Shown here in pieces: positions 22,327 through 28,255 of a DNA stretch of 39,001 bases. The notes beneath the pieces were generated by a model. It made no database searches and was not told where the DNA came from. It saw nothing but the letters and a program-made list of their open reading frames with translations. The stretch lies in the UHGV virus genome UHGV-0059893, one strand, 5' to 3'. Position 1 is the stretch's first letter. Each line of letters opens with the position of its first letter. The DNA comes from a virus. Position numbers and translations under genes: made by a program.

Positions 22327-23505
22327 GTGGGGATTTTTCAAAAGGCGGTAGGATACTTCACAAAAAAAGCAACAGTTCCTTTAGAAGAATATTTTTGTAA
22401 ATTGCAAGTTGATTTTGTGTATCGAAAATTTGCAATTGAAACTTGTATTGATTTGATTGCAAATGCGATGAGCAAAGCGGAATTCAAGTCATATGAAGAT
22501 GGAAAAAATAAAAAGAATGATCTTTACTATAGGCTGAATGTAGCTCCTAATAAGAAAAATAATGCAACAGAATTTAGAAAAAAACTGATTAGGAGATTAA
22601 TATTCTACAATGAAGTATTGATCGTTTCTCCATCTGATAATTCTAGCGAAATATTTATTGCGGATAGTTGGGATGTCACAGAATATGCATTGAAAGATGA
22701 TGTGTTTTCTCAAGTGCAAATTAACAATATAGTCCTTGATAGAGAATTTCTAGAAAGTGATGTTATCTATATAAAATACGCAGATCAACAAATTAGGCAA
22801 CTAGTCGATGCGTATTATCAAGCGTATGGGAAACTCATTTCTAGTGCCATGAATGTTTACAAGCGTTCTAACGCTCGTAGATACGTACTGAAAGGGAATT
22901 TATTCCGATCGCAAGACAATACAACACAAGATCAAATCAATAAAATGATGACATCACAATTTAAGGCTTTTATGGAAGCTGATAATGCAGGTGCGGTATT
23001 TCAATTACAAAATGAGTACACATTAGAAGATTTCAGCGGAAACTTTCAAAGCAATTCAAGAGATATAAAAAACTTAATAGACGACATCTTTGAGATGACA
23101 GCAGCAGCGTTTCACGTTCCGAAAAACCTACTAAAGGGAGACATGAGTGGGTTATCGGATCAAGTGGACGCTTTTTTAATGTTCGAAATCATTCCAATTG
23201 CTGAACTTATTCAGGATGCGTTTAACGCTAGTCTTTATGAAGCAGAAGAATACTTGTCAGGGAATTTTGTACGTGTGGATACAACTATGATCAAGATTAC
23301 TAGCTTCAAAGATTTGGTTGACGCTATTGATGTAGGCATTAGAAATGGGGTATTCACAATCAACGAAGGAAGAGAACGCGTTGGAAATGATCGCTCTGAT
23401 AAAGCGATGGCAGATGAAATATTTATAACTAAAAACAATCAACAAGTATCGAAAGGAGGTGAGGCGAATGACGACAATGAAAACATTTCTAGCAGTAAAG
23501 AATGA
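22327..23505 (+). CDS. Portal protein (HK97 family-like).
   Basis: RBS GGAGGTGAGAAAGTG gives a GTG start at 22327 (the track starts at TTG 22309). ~390 aa. Located between terL and the prohead protease gene. Confidence 0.8.
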   Translation: MGIFQKAVGYFTKKATVPLEEYFCKLQVDFVYRKFAIETCIDLIANAMSKAEFKSYEDGKNKKNDLYYRLNVAPNKKNNATEFRKKLIRRLIFYNEVLIVSPSDNSSEIFIADSWDVTEYALKDDVFSQVQINNIVLDREFLESDVIYIKYADQQIRQLVDAYYQAYGKLISSAMNVYKRSNARRYVLKGNLFRSQDNTTQDQINKMMTSQFKAFMEADNAGAVFQLQNEYTLEDFSGNFQSNSRDIKNLIDDIFEMTAAAFHVPKNLLKGDMSGLSDQVDAFLMFEIIPIAELIQDAFNASLYEAEEYLSGNFVRVDTTMIKITSFKDLVDAIDVGIRNGVFTINEGRERVGNDRSDKAMADEIFITKNNQQVSKGGEANDDNENISSSKE

Positions 23506-24154
23506 AGGCACAGTACCGCAAATTTTTATTCAGGGATTTATTGGTTCTAGTTGGTTCTTTGAAGGGAATACTGACAAGGGAATCAAAAATATTTTGGATA
23601 GTCTAGGTGATCAAGAAGAAATTGAAGTAGTGATTAATTCAAACGGTGGAGACGTATTTCAAGGGATTGCTATTGGGAACTTACTTAAGTCAAATAAAGC
23701 AAAAGTTAACGTTGTGATTAACGGCTTAGCCGCTAGTGCTGCTTCAATTATCGCAATGGCTGGCGATACTATAAAAATCTACAACAATGCACAATTGATG
23801 ATTCACCGCGCTTCCACATATGGAGAAGGAAATGTCGATGACTTCCGCACGATTGCTGATCAATTGGAATCAATTGATAAATCGGTAAAGGCTTCATATA
23901 AAACACGATTCAACGGTACAGATGAAGCATTGCAAGAACTTCTTGAAAAAGAATCGTTTATGGATGCAGAAACAGCTTTGAGTTATGGATTGGTCGATGA
24001 AATTATCGATGCAGAAAATAGCGCAGGTACTGAAGCTAATAAAGAACAAAGCGTTGAAGAAATTTTGAATGACGTTGAAGAAAAAAGAGCAGAAAAAATC
24101 GCTGCATTTACAGCAGCATTAAATAAAACATTTGGACAAGGAGATGCAAAATAA
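23468..24154 (+). CDS. ClpP-like (S14) prohead maturation protease.
   Basis: RBS GGAGGTGAGGCGAATG. Motifs VINSNGGDVFQGIAIGN, NGLAASAASIIAMAGD and MIHRAS are typical of the Clp protease fold (catalytic Ser/His). Confidence 0.85.
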   Translation: MTTMKTFLAVKNEGTVPQIFIQGFIGSSWFFEGNTDKGIKNILDSLGDQEEIEVVINSNGGDVFQGIAIGNLLKSNKAKVNVVINGLAASAASIIAMAGDTIKIYNNAQLMIHRASTYGEGNVDDFRTIADQLESIDKSVKASYKTRFNGTDEALQELLEKESFMDAETALSYGLVDEIIDAENSAGTEANKEQSVEEILNDVEEKRAEKIAAFTAALNKTFGQGDAK

Positions 24155-25314
24155 TGACAGTTAAAAATTTAAAAGGTGTAACAGCTGCAAGCGACCAATT
24201 GATGAAAGCTTTTAAAGATGGTAACGAAGAATCTTTTAGCGCAGCTATGGTAAGTTTATCTAAGGAAATTCAGGATAAAATTTTAGAAGAAGCAACAGCA
24301 AAAAATCAAGATCAATTAGTATTAATGAACCGCGGTCAGCGTGTATTAACTACACAAGAAACAAAATTCTATAACGAAGTAGTGAAAAACGAAGGTTTTG
24401 CAGGGGTCGAAGAATTAGTGCCAGCTACTGTATTTGAACGCGTATTTGAAGACCTAGAACAATCTCATCCGCTATTGCAAAAAATTACTTTTGTTAACAC
24501 AACTGGTGTAACAGAATGGATTGTGTCACGTGGTGTCAATCCAGCATGGTGGGGTAAACTTTGCGAAGCTGTTAAAAAAGTTTTAGATAATGGCTTTGAC
24601 GTAATTAACATGAAGCAGTTCAAGCTATCAGGTTATATTCCTGTATGTAAGGCAATGCTTGACTTAGGTCCAGTATGGTTAGATCGTTATGTCCGTACTG
24701 TTTTAGTAGAATCATTGAGAATTGCATTAGAACAAGCAATTGTTGATGGTACTGGTAAAGATATGCCAGTCGGAATGATGCGTGACATGAGCAAACAAAC
24801 TAGCGGAGAATATGCTGAAAAAACAGCAGAACCTATTACAGCTTTAGATGCTGCAACTATGGGCGGTTTGATGGCACGACTATCAAAATTCAATATCGAA
24901 GGTGTAGATGATCCGATTTATCGTAATGTGAATCCTTCTGATGTGGTCCTAATTGTGAATCCAACTGATTACTGGTCTAAAGTATTCCCAGCTAAGACTG
25001 TACTAACTGCTAATGGAGAATATGTACAAGTATTGCCAGTACCAGTTTCAGACTTGCAGTCAACAGCTGTGCCAGAAGGAAAAGCAGTTATTGGGGTAGC
25101 TTCAGATTACTTTATGGGTGTAGGATCTACACTAAAAATTGAAGCTTCAGATGAATACCATTTTGTTGAAGACGAACGCATTTATCTAGCTAAACAATAT
25201 GCAAACGGTCAACCTAAACGTAACGATAGTTTCATTGTATTAGATATTAGCGCTTTGGGAACTACTACTACAACTACAAAACCAACAACCACAACAACTA
25301 CAACACAAGCGTAG
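24154..25314 (+). CDS. Major capsid protein (HK97 fold, with an N-terminal scaffolding/delta-like coiled coil). It carries an unusual C-terminal tail TTTTTTKPTTTTTTTQA.
   Basis: ATGA overlap with the protease gene. 386 aa. Position and size. Poly-Thr C-terminus read directly (25258-25311). Confidence 0.85.
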   Translation: MTVKNLKGVTAASDQLMKAFKDGNEESFSAAMVSLSKEIQDKILEEATAKNQDQLVLMNRGQRVLTTQETKFYNEVVKNEGFAGVEELVPATVFERVFEDLEQSHPLLQKITFVNTTGVTEWIVSRGVNPAWWGKLCEAVKKVLDNGFDVINMKQFKLSGYIPVCKAMLDLGPVWLDRYVRTVLVESLRIALEQAIVDGTGKDMPVGMMRDMSKQTSGEYAEKTAEPITALDAATMGGLMARLSKFNIEGVDDPIYRNVNPSDVVLIVNPTDYWSKVFPAKTVLTANGEYVQVLPVPVSDLQSTAVPEGKAVIGVASDYFMGVGSTLKIEASDEYHFVEDERIYLAKQYANGQPKRNDSFIVLDISALGTTTTTTKPTTTTTTTQA

Positions 25315-25323
25315 GTGATCAGA

Positions 25324-26199
25324 ATGAAGTATATTCTTTGTCAGCCGGCAATCAATCGGTTTAAATGGGAGCTTGAAGTTTGTTTAACTAATCTGAAGAA
25401 ACTAGGAATCAAAGATATCGTATTGCTTTTCAGCAGACACGATGATCAGATTCCTAGTTTTTTTGAGAAGGAATATGGCGTTGAAGTTCATGTGTACGAT
25501 GATCTGCGGGACGACAAAGAGTATATTCCTTCGATTAAACCATATTTATGGTGGAAATATTTAGAAGAAGATCATTCGCGTGAGGATGACCGATATTTCT
25601 ATATCGATTCGGATGTCATTTTCAATAAGAAAATTAATTTGCGTAGATTGCCTTCTAAAGAGGATGTTTGGTATTGTAGCGACTGCTGTAGTTATCTAAG
25701 TCTTGATTATATTAGAGGCTGTGAAAACGGAGAAAATATTCTAAAAGATATGGCAAACATTGTAAATGTAACAGTAGAATCTTTGGAAACTATAAACACT
25801 AATTCAGGAGGCGCACAGTGGGTTATTAACCGTCCTAAAGCGAATTATTGGAAAAAGGTTTATCTAGATTCTAATCGGCTATATCGCTACCTTAGAGGGC
25901 AAAAAACAAATATACAAATCTGGACAGCCGAGATGTGGGCACAGCTTTGGAACATGATGTATTTCAATATTGGTCCTAAAGTTCACGAGGAATTAGACTT
26001 TTGTTTTGCTACTGATCCAATAGAAAAAGTTAAAGAAGTAAAAATCTTGCACAATGCTGGAGTAACAACAGCTGACGAAGATTTATTTTTCAAAGGGAGA
26101 TATGTGACCTCCACGCCTTTTGATGAAGATTTATCATTTGTAAACAAGAAAAAATGCTCTTACGCATATGCTAAAGCAATTAAGGCGGTGGTTAGATGA
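25324..26199 (+). CDS. Hypothetical 291-aa protein with a GT-A-like DxD motif (FYIDSDVIF). It is a candidate glycosyltransferase inserted between the capsid and connector genes.
   Basis: RBS AGGTGA lies 5 nt before ATG 25324 (the track starts at GTG 25315). DSD is at 25606-25614, ~95 residues from the N-terminus and preceded by hydrophobic residues. Such an extra gene in this position is atypical for HK97-like head modules. Confidence 0.6.
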   Translation: MKYILCQPAINRFKWELEVCLTNLKKLGIKDIVLLFSRHDDQIPSFFEKEYGVEVHVYDDLRDDKEYIPSIKPYLWWKYLEEDHSREDDRYFYIDSDVIFNKKINLRRLPSKEDVWYCSDCCSYLSLDYIRGCENGENILKDMANIVNVTVESLETINTNSGGAQWVINRPKANYWKKVYLDSNRLYRYLRGQKTNIQIWTAEMWAQLWNMMYFNIGPKVHEELDFCFATDPIEKVKEVKILHNAGVTTADEDLFFKGRYVTSTPFDEDLSFVNKKKCSYAYAKAIKAVVR

Positions 26200-26507
26200 C
26201 GCCTGAACAAGTGACTGAAGAATTGCTAATGGCTGTGAAGGATAATATTTACGTTACCTGGAACGAAGAAGACGAGTCAATTAAAAAGATGATAGCTAAA
26301 AATGCTGTTTATCTTCAAAGTAAAGTGAGTACAACTCTTTCTTTTTCTCCCGAAAGCTTAGAATACGGATTGCTAATCGAAAGATGTAGATACGACTGGA
26401 ACCGTGCTTTAGATGAGTTTGAGCAGAACTTCGCTAGTGAGTTATTAGGTTTCATTCAACATTATGCGCTACAAGAATATATTGCAGGTGATGGGAATGG
26501 CGAATAA
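26196..26507 (+). CDS. Head-tail connector / DNA-packaging (gp6-like) protein.
   Basis: ATGA overlap. ~100 aa. Conserved position after the capsid gene. Confidence 0.6.
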   Translation: MTPEQVTEELLMAVKDNIYVTWNEEDESIKKMIAKNAVYLQSKVSTTLSFSPESLEYGLLIERCRYDWNRALDEFEQNFASELLGFIQHYALQEYIAGDGNGE

Positions 26508-26850
26508 TCGTAGACTCGAAGAAACGTTCAACGATGGTTGGTTAAAGATTTTGACGCAAACTACCAAAAGAAATGAATTAGGAAAAAAGATTGGTGTAGA
26601 AGATACAGAAATCACTTCTTTAAAATTTAGAAATCTTTCCATGAGAGATAGCGATATAACAGCTATGGATGCGATGGGATCGAAATTAACTAAGAAAGTA
26701 AAGACTCCATTTCATCCAATCGCCAAGAAATTTAATAAAGATCAATATTTTATCGTAATCGATAGTATGCGTTACAACGTTATCTATGCCGATTACGATA
26801 ATTTTTATATCTATTTTTATCTTGAAAGTGTGGGTGAATATGGTGATTGA
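26497..26850 (+). CDS. Head closure / head-tail joining protein.
   Basis: RBS AGGTGA is 8 nt before ATG 26497 (internal Met of the track ORF). ~117 aa. Conserved position. Confidence 0.55.
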   Translation: MANNRRLEETFNDGWLKILTQTTKRNELGKKIGVEDTEITSLKFRNLSMRDSDITAMDAMGSKLTKKVKTPFHPIAKKFNKDQYFIVIDSMRYNVIYADYDNFYIYFYLESVGEYGD

Positions 26851-27241
26851 TAATTCTAAAGAAAAAGAACGTTTAAATACGCAAATTTCTGCTATCAAAA
26901 CTTCCTTAGAAGAACATTTTAAGCTCAAACTCTTTCAAGACTCTGTTGGCGAGGATGAGCTACCTGATGATTTTAATTATTTCATTCTCGAAACAGGAGA
27001 AATAGAAATGATCACTGAACCAAAATATAGCGTGGGTCAAAATCTATATCTAACTTTCTATTCAGAAAATAGAGAAGATTTAACAGGAGATTCACTAGAT
27101 ATTATTTCATTGATTCAAAATCGTTCGATTCGTTTTCAGAGAATGGATCCCAATCATTTAAAACTAGAGAATCAAGATCGCTATATTGATCAACTGGTGT
27201 TTACATTTAGACGATTATTGAAGAGTGATTGTCATGGCTAA
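26840..27241 (+). CDS. Tail-completion / neck protein (HK97 gp10-like position).
   Basis: I place the start at the internal ATG 26840, which overlaps the previous gene by 11 nt. The upstream part of the track ORF is a hydrophobic junk extension. Confidence 0.5.
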   Translation: MVIDNSKEKERLNTQISAIKTSLEEHFKLKLFQDSVGEDELPDDFNYFILETGEIEMITEPKYSVGQNLYLTFYSENREDLTGDSLDIISLIQNRSIRFQRMDPNHLKLENQDRYIDQLVFTFRRLLKSDCHG

Positions 27242-27638
27242 AAATAGTTGGGAGTTAAAAATAAATGGGCATGATGAACTTCTTGTGCGGATGGAACGCT
27301 ATTCAAGTGAGAGCGAACGACTGATTAACGAAGCATTGAAATCAAAGGGTTCAGATATGGCAGTGGATAGGATTACGGAAAAAATTCCTGTTTCTGAAGC
27401 AGATTTAAGAAGAGGACACCAACACGCAAAAAATAGTCGTCCACTTAAGACTCAATATATTAATTTAGGTTTCATCATTAGACCTACAAAAAAATTTGAG
27501 TATTTAAAATATCCTGATTTGGGGATAGGTACTTCTAAAAGAAATCAGCCAGACGAATTCATGAGAAGAGGATTAGGTCTTGCACTTGATCCAATTACAG
27601 AACTTCTGATTCGTCAATTCGATAAATTAAATAAATAG
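27234..27638 (+). CDS. Tail terminator / tail-component protein.
   Basis: I place the start at MAKNSWELK (ATG 27234), overlapping the previous stop. ~134 aa. Conserved position before the major tail protein gene. Confidence 0.5.
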   Translation: MAKNSWELKINGHDELLVRMERYSSESERLINEALKSKGSDMAVDRITEKIPVSEADLRRGHQHAKNSRPLKTQYINLGFIIRPTKKFEYLKYPDLGIGTSKRNQPDEFMRRGLGLALDPITELLIRQFDKLNK

Positions 27639-27649
27639 GGGGAACAACA

Positions 27650-28255
27650 ATGGCTAAAACAACAACTGTAGTAACAACGTTCGATAACGTGAGTATCAAA
27701 CGAATTGCTTTTAATTTTAAGAACGCAGAAAATGCAATCGCAACAGATTGTAACGGACAATTAGATGGCGAAACAGAAATGCAAACGGTGGTTAAAAAAT
27801 GTGGAGCGACAGAAGTAAAATCAAAATCTAAACCAATCAATATGACGGTAACAATTACTGCACATGTACCAATGGAAGTTTATCGACGTTTCAATGGATT
27901 GAGACAAGATGAGCGTATTAAACCAGGTATTTACTCTTACGGTCCTGATTCCGTAGGCGAAGATTTCTCACTTGCTGCAGAGATCGTGGATGACTTCGAA
28001 GAAAATAGCAAGTTAGTTGGTATGTTAGCATGCACTTCAAATACAGGATTAACATTCTCTATTGAAAATGGTGCGGATGAAGTAGCTGCGTTAGAACTAG
28101 AAACAAAAGTTATGCAAGATGAATTTGGTAAATTCTATCATGAAGCAATTGTTGCAGAACTTGAAGAAGACTTAACAGATCAATGGATGACGAATCTATC
28201 TGCTGATGTGATTAAAAAGAGTTCAACAACCACTACTACAACGACACAAGCTTAA
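27650..28255 (+). CDS. Major tail (tube) protein with a C-terminal tail SSTTTTTTTQA.
   Basis: Strong RBS GGGGGAACAACAATG. 201 aa. Position before the chaperone and tape measure genes. Its C-terminal ten residues are identical to the C-terminus of the capsid protein. Confidence 0.75.
   Translation: MAKTTTVVTTFDNVSIKRIAFNFKNAENAIATDCNGQLDGETEMQTVVKKCGATEVKSKSKPINMTVTITAHVPMEVYRRFNGLRQDERIKPGIYSYGPDSVGEDFSLAAEIVDDFEENSKLVGMLACTSNTGLTFSIENGADEVAALELETKVMQDEFGKFYHEAIVAELEEDLTDQWMTNLSADVIKKSSTTTTTTTQA

Follow-up and report, generated by a model that had tools for sequence, protein, structure and literature searches.

Why do two otherwise unrelated structural proteins of one phage end in the same run of threonines, and what is the role of the gene that lies between them? 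The question is raised by the virus genome UHGV-0059893, a temperate Enterococcus faecium siphophage in prophage form, of which we analysed a stretch of 39,001 nucleotides (hereafter, the window). Its major capsid protein and its major tail (tube) protein both terminate in a poly-threonine tag, and the open reading frame (ORF) at 25324..26199 separates the capsid gene from the genes leading to the tail. We propose, with a probability of about 0.75, that this ORF encodes an enzyme that would O-glycosylate exposed C-terminal threonine (Thr) tags of the capsid and tube proteins, a reading based on sequence comparison and a modelled structure.

The capsid gene (24154..25314, plus strand) encodes an HK97-type protein of 386 amino acids (aa) with an N-terminal scaffold-like region, which matches PF05065 (E 2e-16) and phrog_10 (E 6e-64). 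Its counterpart in Enterococcus phage 4995_1 (OP745419), which shares 97.5% DNA identity with the window over the 4.1-kb capsid-to-tail stretch, carries the annotation major capsid protein. The tube gene (27650..28255, plus strand; 201 aa) matches phrog_117 (E 3e-18), and its position fits this assignment, 3' of the neck genes and 5' of a chaperone pair and the tape measure gene. These matches uphold the identities that an initial annotation of the DNA had given to the two genes, and its statement that the proteins are otherwise unrelated also holds (BLASTP E 0.31 outside the tags).

The capsid protein ends in ...ISALGTTTTTTKPTTTTTTTQA, with the stop codon at 25312-25314. Direct reading of the sequence places its tag, GTTTTTTKPTTTTTTTQA, at 25258..25311 (plus strand), with Thr runs at 25261-25278 and 25285-25305. 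The tag is added beyond the conserved end of the fold, ...SFIVLDISALG, at which relatives with an 81-83% identical capsid protein stop, untagged. The tube protein ends in ...VIKKSSTTTTTTTQA, and its tag, SSTTTTTTTQA, likewise read directly, lies at 28220..28252 (plus strand) with a Thr run at 28226-28246; in tag-less relatives the tube protein ends in ...LSADVIKVTPSN, ...VITAVKP and similar residues. Both tags are predicted acceptors of O-glycosylation. The initial annotation had the two proteins share their last ten residues, of which nine (TTTTTTTQA) are indeed common, the residue before them being P in the capsid and S in the tail protein. As it also stated, the tags use different codons: 27 tag bases include 5 mismatches, all of them at third positions. 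The shared poly-Thr ends are real and far beyond chance, because a six-frame scan of the 39-kb window finds Thr runs of at least four residues only in the two capsid runs and the one tail run, and because 98 of the 715 plus-strand ORFs in related loci end in such a Thr tail vs none of the 416 minus-strand ORFs. The length of the capsid runs differs among otherwise 99%-identical proteins (the window, P0122, L082, L088 and L045), with 7 or 10 Thr in the last run and 5, 6 or 7 in the first, which suggests in-frame expansion and contraction of ACN repeats.

What, then, does the gene at 25324..26199 (plus strand) encode? The ORF, of 291 aa, is real and conserved, as the initial annotation had assumed, with 906 homologues. 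It belongs to phrog_4417, labelled 'unknown function', has no Pfam family, and its homologues are 'hypothetical protein' in the public records seen. Two public records name a family member 'prophage pi2 protein 34', which is uninformative, and the sole glyco hint in the annotations seen is 'hypothetical protein with lpxB motif' (CAJCJZ010000002.1, vB_EfaS_140, H29). Protein identity amounts to 51-78% across Enterococcus, Listeria, Lacticaseibacillus, Staphylococcus and Bacillaceae, which is unusually high for a phage protein, and the alignment contains 38 invariant positions, including D95-x-D97 and H243-N-A-G. The first of these is a DxD motif (D95-S96-D97; codons at 25606..25614, plus strand), predicted to bind Mn2+ and the nucleotide-sugar, in which neither D95 nor D97 varies among 35 homologues, the most distant of them 51% identical. 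The second includes H243 (codon 26050..26052, plus strand), invariant together with A245 and G246, a candidate third metal ligand as in the HxxG of GT8 enzymes; it may, judged by sequence conservation, be the counterpart of the histidine in the HxxGxxKPW-like motif of GT8.

An AlphaFold2 model of the enzyme built with 35 homologues (pLDDT 96.2, pTM 0.92) shows a single Rossmann-like alpha/beta/alpha nucleotide-sugar-binding domain of the GT-A type, in which the DxD motif directly follows strand 90-93. Foldseek comparisons against the PDB and against viral models both agree on a GT8-like GT-A fold. At the sequence level, the protein itself has no Pfam match at E<=0.01, including PF01501 (CAZy GT8), 35 family members match no Pfam glycosyltransferase model at E<=5, and the family profile finds nothing relevant among PDB sequences even at E<=5-10. 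An hhalign comparison with a glycogenin sequence places YFYIDSDVIF on CVFMDADTLV (DSD on DAD) with a non-significant E of 0.14. We conclude that the product is, by predicted fold and motif, a glycosyltransferase (GT-A, GT8-like, retaining-type) that forms its own sequence family. Such an enzyme would transfer a sugar from a nucleotide-sugar donor, for which fusions of family members to Glycos_transf_2 and methyltransferase domains provide indirect support.

The family is large, comprising 871 clusters at 50% identity, 746 of them at E<=1e-10. Some long members (500-780 aa; P0289, P0295, P0304, P0381) carry extra fused domains, namely Glycos_transf_2, in one case radical SAM plus SPASM and in one case a Methyltransf_24-like domain just below the Pfam cut-off, suggesting more elaborate modifications in other phages. 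One homologue, 42% identical, lies on a contig labelled Candidatus Saccharimonadales (L129) after a phrog_422 capsid gene whose product ends in ...AASTTTTT, and another, 32% identical, lies on a contig labelled Woesearchaeota (L133); the family therefore extends beyond Firmicutes.

The stop codon of the enzyme gene and the start codon of the gene that follows overlap (ATGA), and the stretch from the terminase gene to the tail gene contains no plus-strand terminator; the enzyme gene is therefore a late gene, expressed together with those of the capsid and tail proteins. The overlapping gene (26196..26507, plus strand; phrog_749) is head-tail connector-like and untagged in the window. Its homologues are poly-T-tailed in many Bacillaceae prophages, one of which (L099, 3912-4226) ends in ...DETTTTTTTTEGV.

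Are the tags and the enzyme gene gained and lost together? A natural experiment is provided by the closest capsid homologues, which occur in tagged and untagged forms with the common fold boundary ...SFIVLDISxLG. We compared the window with the contigs of ten relatives, all with syntenic head-tail modules, in which capsid proteins are 81-89% and tube proteins 73-99% identical to those of the window. Poly-T tails are present on both capsid and tube proteins in all seven enzyme-positive modules (the window, L258, L259, L260, L267, L268 and L269) and missing from both in all four enzyme-negative ones (L255, L256, L257 and L266; negative by tblastn), where ends such as ...LGPVSK and ...VITAVKP are found and an ORF of 66-126 aa occupies the enzyme's slot. 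The association across the 11 modules is perfect (Fisher p=0.003, a value that ignores shared ancestry).

The same relatives bear on two alternatives that the initial annotation had raised. The tags might be signals for a prohead or host protease and be gone from mature virions, an idea in keeping with the ClpP-family prohead protease gene directly upstream of the capsid gene (23459..24154). A tail tube, however, is no prohead-protease substrate, and the co-varying GT-A gene would be left without a role. We regard this explanation as extremely improbable and reject it because the tag-less relatives retain a ClpP-type prohead protease along with an 81-83% identical capsid protein. Alternatively, the tags could serve as docking handles for non-covalent decoration, the 291-aa protein being a virion-bound lectin-like decoration or a tag chaperone. 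The presence of a small Ig/FN3-like, decoration-type protein in the post-capsid slot of enzyme-less relatives is in line with docking; on the other side, an invariant DxD and 51-78% identity between genera are what one would expect of an enzyme, and the homologue in phage 1706 is annotated 'unknown' among neighbours annotated as structural. Docking is very unlikely in our view.

The small Ig/FN3-like proteins belong to phrog_341, phrog_14018 or phrog_37836, which PHROGs labels 'major tail protein', and lie 3' of the capsid gene in enzyme-less relatives (L255 7203-7403, L257 5791-6024 and L266 6203-6583). Further Ig/FN3-like loci were observed at L084 5630-5998, L086 5660-6001 and L264 11649-11996. 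In Lentibacillus prophages and the Lactobacillus myovirus Bacchae, the same small domain bears long T-rich tails and lies beside the enzyme gene.

Does the coupling hold beyond close relatives? The broad survey drew on loci with an enzyme homologue, 53 of them sampled at one genome per species, plus IMG/VR loci; the counts below refer to the 43 species-level loci with enough flank, uncorrected for shared ancestry, and a tagged ORF is one of at least 80 aa with a run of four or more Thr inside its last 16 residues. At least one tagged ORF is present in 41 of the 43 loci, which bears out the co-occurrence of tags with the 25324..26199 gene for which the initial annotation had proposed to look. 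At least two tagged ORFs are found in 36/43 loci and at least three in 14/43, and a tagged ORF ends no more than 120 nucleotides (nt) upstream of the enzyme gene in 38/43. The tagged proteins comprise capsid families (phrogs 10, 247, 422 and 909, plus the protease-capsid fusion phrog_3270), tube families (phrogs 117, 238 and 2645), the small Ig/FN3-like protein and the phrog_749 connector. Gene order varies, the enzyme gene lying 3' of the capsid gene in the window and 3' of the tube gene in many other phages. Simple hitch-hiking is unlikely because the tagged proteins belong to unrelated families, and linkage alone hardly explains why the same appendage should sit on unrelated exposed virion proteins beside the same enzyme.

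The enzyme gene was found in 77 deposited phage genomes, including those of Enterococcus VPE25/VFW and phiFL1A-2A, Lactococcus 1706 and bIL285, Lactobacillus PLE3 and iLp84, ~90-kb Staphylococcus siphophages, Clostridium phiCTP1 and Herelleviridae of Lactobacillus; VPE25, 1706 and the Herelleviridae are strictly lytic. In VPE25, the tube protein is the one tagged, ending in ...TTTDTTTTTTTTTTAGK. In phage 1706, orf10 (a capsid/protease fusion) and orf13 ('major structural protein') carry a run of nine and ten Thr, respectively, followed by HHD, with the common end ...TTTTTTTTTHHD, and the enzyme gene is orf14, directly 3' of orf13, annotated 'unknown' next to the structural annotations of orf10-13. 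The replication region of Bacchae harbours the enzyme gene, directly after a pair of small ORFs that have long T-rich tails and of which one has an FN3-like N-terminus; the capsid and buried tube proteins of this phage are untagged and its exposed sheath protein contains an internal T8 run, a distribution that, as judged from the sequences, fits a logic of surface exposure.

Could the tags instead be hydrophilic bristles or linkers that stay unmodified, with host teichoic acid, cell-wall polymers or phage DNA as the substrate of the 291-aa enzyme? Soluble GT-A enzymes that modify wall polymers (TarP-type) are known from prophages, and some enzyme-positive phages have a weak or single tag. Furthermore, poly-T C-termini occur in many viral contigs with no enzyme-family member in the fetched stretch. 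This followed from a tag-side scan of IMG/VR with the pattern (ACN)7 plus two codons and a stop; among the first 120 stretches returned, 33 of 39 distinct T7-tailed ORFs (at least 150 codons) lacked a family member in the fetched stretch and 6 had one. Set against these points, tags and gene were lost together in near-identical modules, the enzyme gene lies directly 3' of a tagged gene in 38/43 loci, even outside the structural module (Bacchae), and a late operon and strictly lytic carriers misfit lysogenic conversion. We therefore consider unmodified bristles improbable. Glycosylation of DNA was rejected as a separate candidate because the sibling phage 4995_1 has no annotated hydroxymethyl-pyrimidine pathway.

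Since most of these T7-tailed ORFs have no family member in the fetched stretch, the tag is broader than the enzyme family, and poly-T tails can occur with other enzymes or with none. Stretches with T7-plus tails and no family member include L135, L167, L181, L185, L194, L215, L136, L188, L210 and others, with ends such as the tube-like ...SPFFT..TTTTTTT and, on ~384-aa proteins, ...NNTCITTTTTTTAP. No glycosyltransferase was recognisable among the ten ORFs of the poly-T-tailed locus L135.

If one enzyme reads both tags, what would it recognise? The residues after the Thr run tend to match between capsid and tube protein within a phage and to differ between phages (matched pairs end in QA, SHA, SA, GA, KG, SGAGA, EAQ or AAV). 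Of 29 dereplicated loci, 22 agree in the last two residues and 19 in the last three, vs 12% and 9%, respectively, in cross-locus comparisons (permutation p<=5e-5 for both). The ends being shared within a phage, the extreme C-terminus may, as these comparisons suggest, be part of what the enzyme recognises. Third-position identity between the tags of one phage is slightly raised, at 0.42 vs 0.31 cross-locus and 0.34 expected. In L128, SHA is written AGC CAT GCT at one end but TCA CAC GCA at the second, and such use of different codon families for the same end means that the match is largely held at the protein level. The initial annotation had inferred a protein-level constraint rather than a recent DNA duplication, which stands for the window and for many loci such as L128. 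In some sibling prophages, however, the last 30 nt of the capsid and tube genes are identical or one base apart (L041, L049 and L057, ending in TKKA or TKKV), as they are in L098. Tag-to-tag DNA exchange, by gene conversion or recombination, therefore also occurs.

Several observations weigh against glycosylation of the tags by this enzyme. The enzyme assignment rests on a predicted fold, and the hhalign match to glycogenin is non-significant. Two of the 43 enzyme loci have no clear tag, in some phages a single protein is tagged (VPE25, L094 and L103, the tail protein only), and the co-occurrence statistics ignore shared ancestry. The 33/39 T7-tailed ORFs without a family member in the fetched stretch count in the same direction, as do ~28 of ~63 near-identical E. 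faecium prophage contigs (IMG/VR L002-L066) in which the enzyme is kept and the tube end has degenerated to KKTSVVTTTATQSQ. The other tube allele, in ~30 of these contigs, ends in KKSSTTTTTTTQA, and the tube end of L023 is truncated (KKLQL); all ~63 retain both the enzyme and the capsid tag. Taken together, the tags, the conserved DxD motif, the tag-enzyme co-occurrence, the adjacency and the joint gain or loss, all of them observed, along with the GT8-like fold class from the model, favour the suggestion of the initial annotation that the tags are O-glycosylation sites resembling those of mycobacteriophages, and the rival explanations are less well supported than tag glycosylation.

From this evidence, we infer the activity of the enzyme, the tags as its acceptor, the donor sugar and the biological role as follows. 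A three-part virion-modification module, consisting of one soluble GT-A enzyme and two disordered Thr tags, would be embedded within the late structural operon. Late in infection, the enzyme would bind a host nucleotide-sugar together with a divalent metal, for which D95/D97 and probably H243 would be the ligands, and would O-glycosylate Thr residues of the tags in the cytoplasm, recognising them probably via the Thr run in combination with the final one to three residues or with the free C-terminus. It is quite unlikely, in our estimate, that the enzyme adds a non-plain sugar (sugar-1-phosphate or polyol-phosphate) to Thr or only extends a first sugar added by the host. The C-termini of HK97-fold capsids and siphophage tubes face outward, as known from T7 and P22 display and from tube C-terminal Ig-like domains; once assembled, the virion would therefore be covered by a dense, mucin-like brush of sugars, with ~13 Thr on each of ~415 capsid subunits plus those of the tail. 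Likely benefits would be a shield from antibodies and proteases and an altered stickiness in mucus or to cell-wall debris. More tentatively, and with more doubt than confidence, we envisage a portable, self-contained glyco-tag, made up of the poly-Thr run and a short pair of terminal residues and read by one small cytoplasmic GT-A of a new family that would load at least seven consecutive Thr. Such a tag may have passed from one virion protein to another, unrelated one, in part through gene conversion from tag to tag, so that the particle as a whole would gain a mucin-like coat. Virion O-glycosylation would then be widespread in gut, dairy and soil Firmicute phages, with other enzymes serving the many further poly-T-tailed virion proteins of viral metagenomes.

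Should tag glycosylation be confirmed, sugar-coated virions would be common in phages of Enterococcus, Lactococcus, Lactobacillus, Listeria, Staphylococcus and Bacillaceae, including the laboratory- and therapy-relevant VPE25 and the dairy phage 1706. This would bear on antibody recognition, on behaviour in gut mucus and milk, on the interpretation of virion proteomics and cryo-EM maps, and on the annotation of 871 family clusters that are now 'hypothetical'. One-enzyme, short-tag O-glycosylation in the cytoplasm would, moreover, be a useful tool for bacterial glycoprotein production. The module is widespread and unannotated, and the proposal is testable with phages already in culture.

How does the module compare with known systems? 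To our knowledge, glycosylation of the phage particle has been demonstrated solely for actinobacteriophages, and the abstract of the study of Che8, Corndog and Myrna by Freeman and colleagues reportedly describes little virion glycosylation in the broader phage population. The initial annotation knew of no description in Firmicute siphophages, and our full-text literature search returned no report of virion glycosylation in Firmicute phages. In one study, glyco-staining of ten phages, including a B. cereus phage and not checked here for the enzyme gene, gave no signal (PMC12894461).

Relative to GT8 (LgtC, glycogenin) and the related GT24 and GT77, the window enzyme is 10-13% identical and falls outside PF01501; by CAZy-style sequence criteria it would count as a separate family, GT8-like by predicted fold. 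The serine-rich-repeat adhesins of Gram-positive cocci (GtfA/B followed by a GT8 enzyme such as GlyE) are huge secreted substrates with hundreds of SxSx repeats whose priming needs a GT-B pair, whereas the window has a single enzyme and short, pure-Thr C-terminal tags on virion proteins. Chlorovirus PBCV-1 (A064R), a eukaryotic giant virus, bears atypical N-linked glycans at internal sites, made by several enzymes, with no C-terminal tag. T4 Hoc and the Ig-like and FN3 decorations ('bacteriophage adherence to mucus') are, like the proposed brush of the window, a dispensable surface feature that likely alters interaction with mucus or surfaces, and Ig/FN3 proteins share the enzyme's genomic slot, with T-rich tails in some relatives; they are, however, protein domains and not a post-translational modification, and the functional parallel is speculative.

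The closest parallel in function is found in mycobacteriophages, in which phage-encoded glycosyltransferases put glycans on the C-termini of capsid and tail-tube proteins (PMC12619734 and PMC11600133, restating Freeman et al. 2023, Cell Host Microbe 31:1216). As in Che8, where capsid and tube proteins share terminal residues (...TGS and ...DGS), those of the window do so (...TQA and ...TQA). The window likewise has a phage-encoded glycosyltransferase gene, a GT-A as predicted from the model, in a prophage late operon, and its candidate acceptor tracts lie exactly at the capsid and tube C-termini and co-vary with the enzyme. The enzymes differ: Che8 has gp108 (GT2 plus methyltransferase), gp109 (GT2-like) and gp110 (GT25), to which the window enzyme is unrelated, and a search of gp108-110 with the enzyme-family profile gave E>0.3 and negative bit scores (hmmsearch --max). 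Judged by these sequence comparisons, the relation is one of analogy, not homology. The three enzymes and the methyltransferase of Che8 lie at the far right genome end, in contrast to the one enzyme gene between its putative substrates in the window; phage 4995_1, in which this is the sole candidate enzyme and no further sugar gene is annotated, has no cluster of several enzymes and an O-methyltransferase for building oligosaccharides. Che8 has short termini that lack a Thr run, unlike the long poly-Thr tract that would be the acceptor in the window, and the host phyla are Actinobacteria and Firmicutes, respectively. As far as can be inferred, the module of the window would work like mycobacteriophage virion glycosylation, and its different enzyme family, different acceptor, single enzyme and embedded gene would make it an independent solution.

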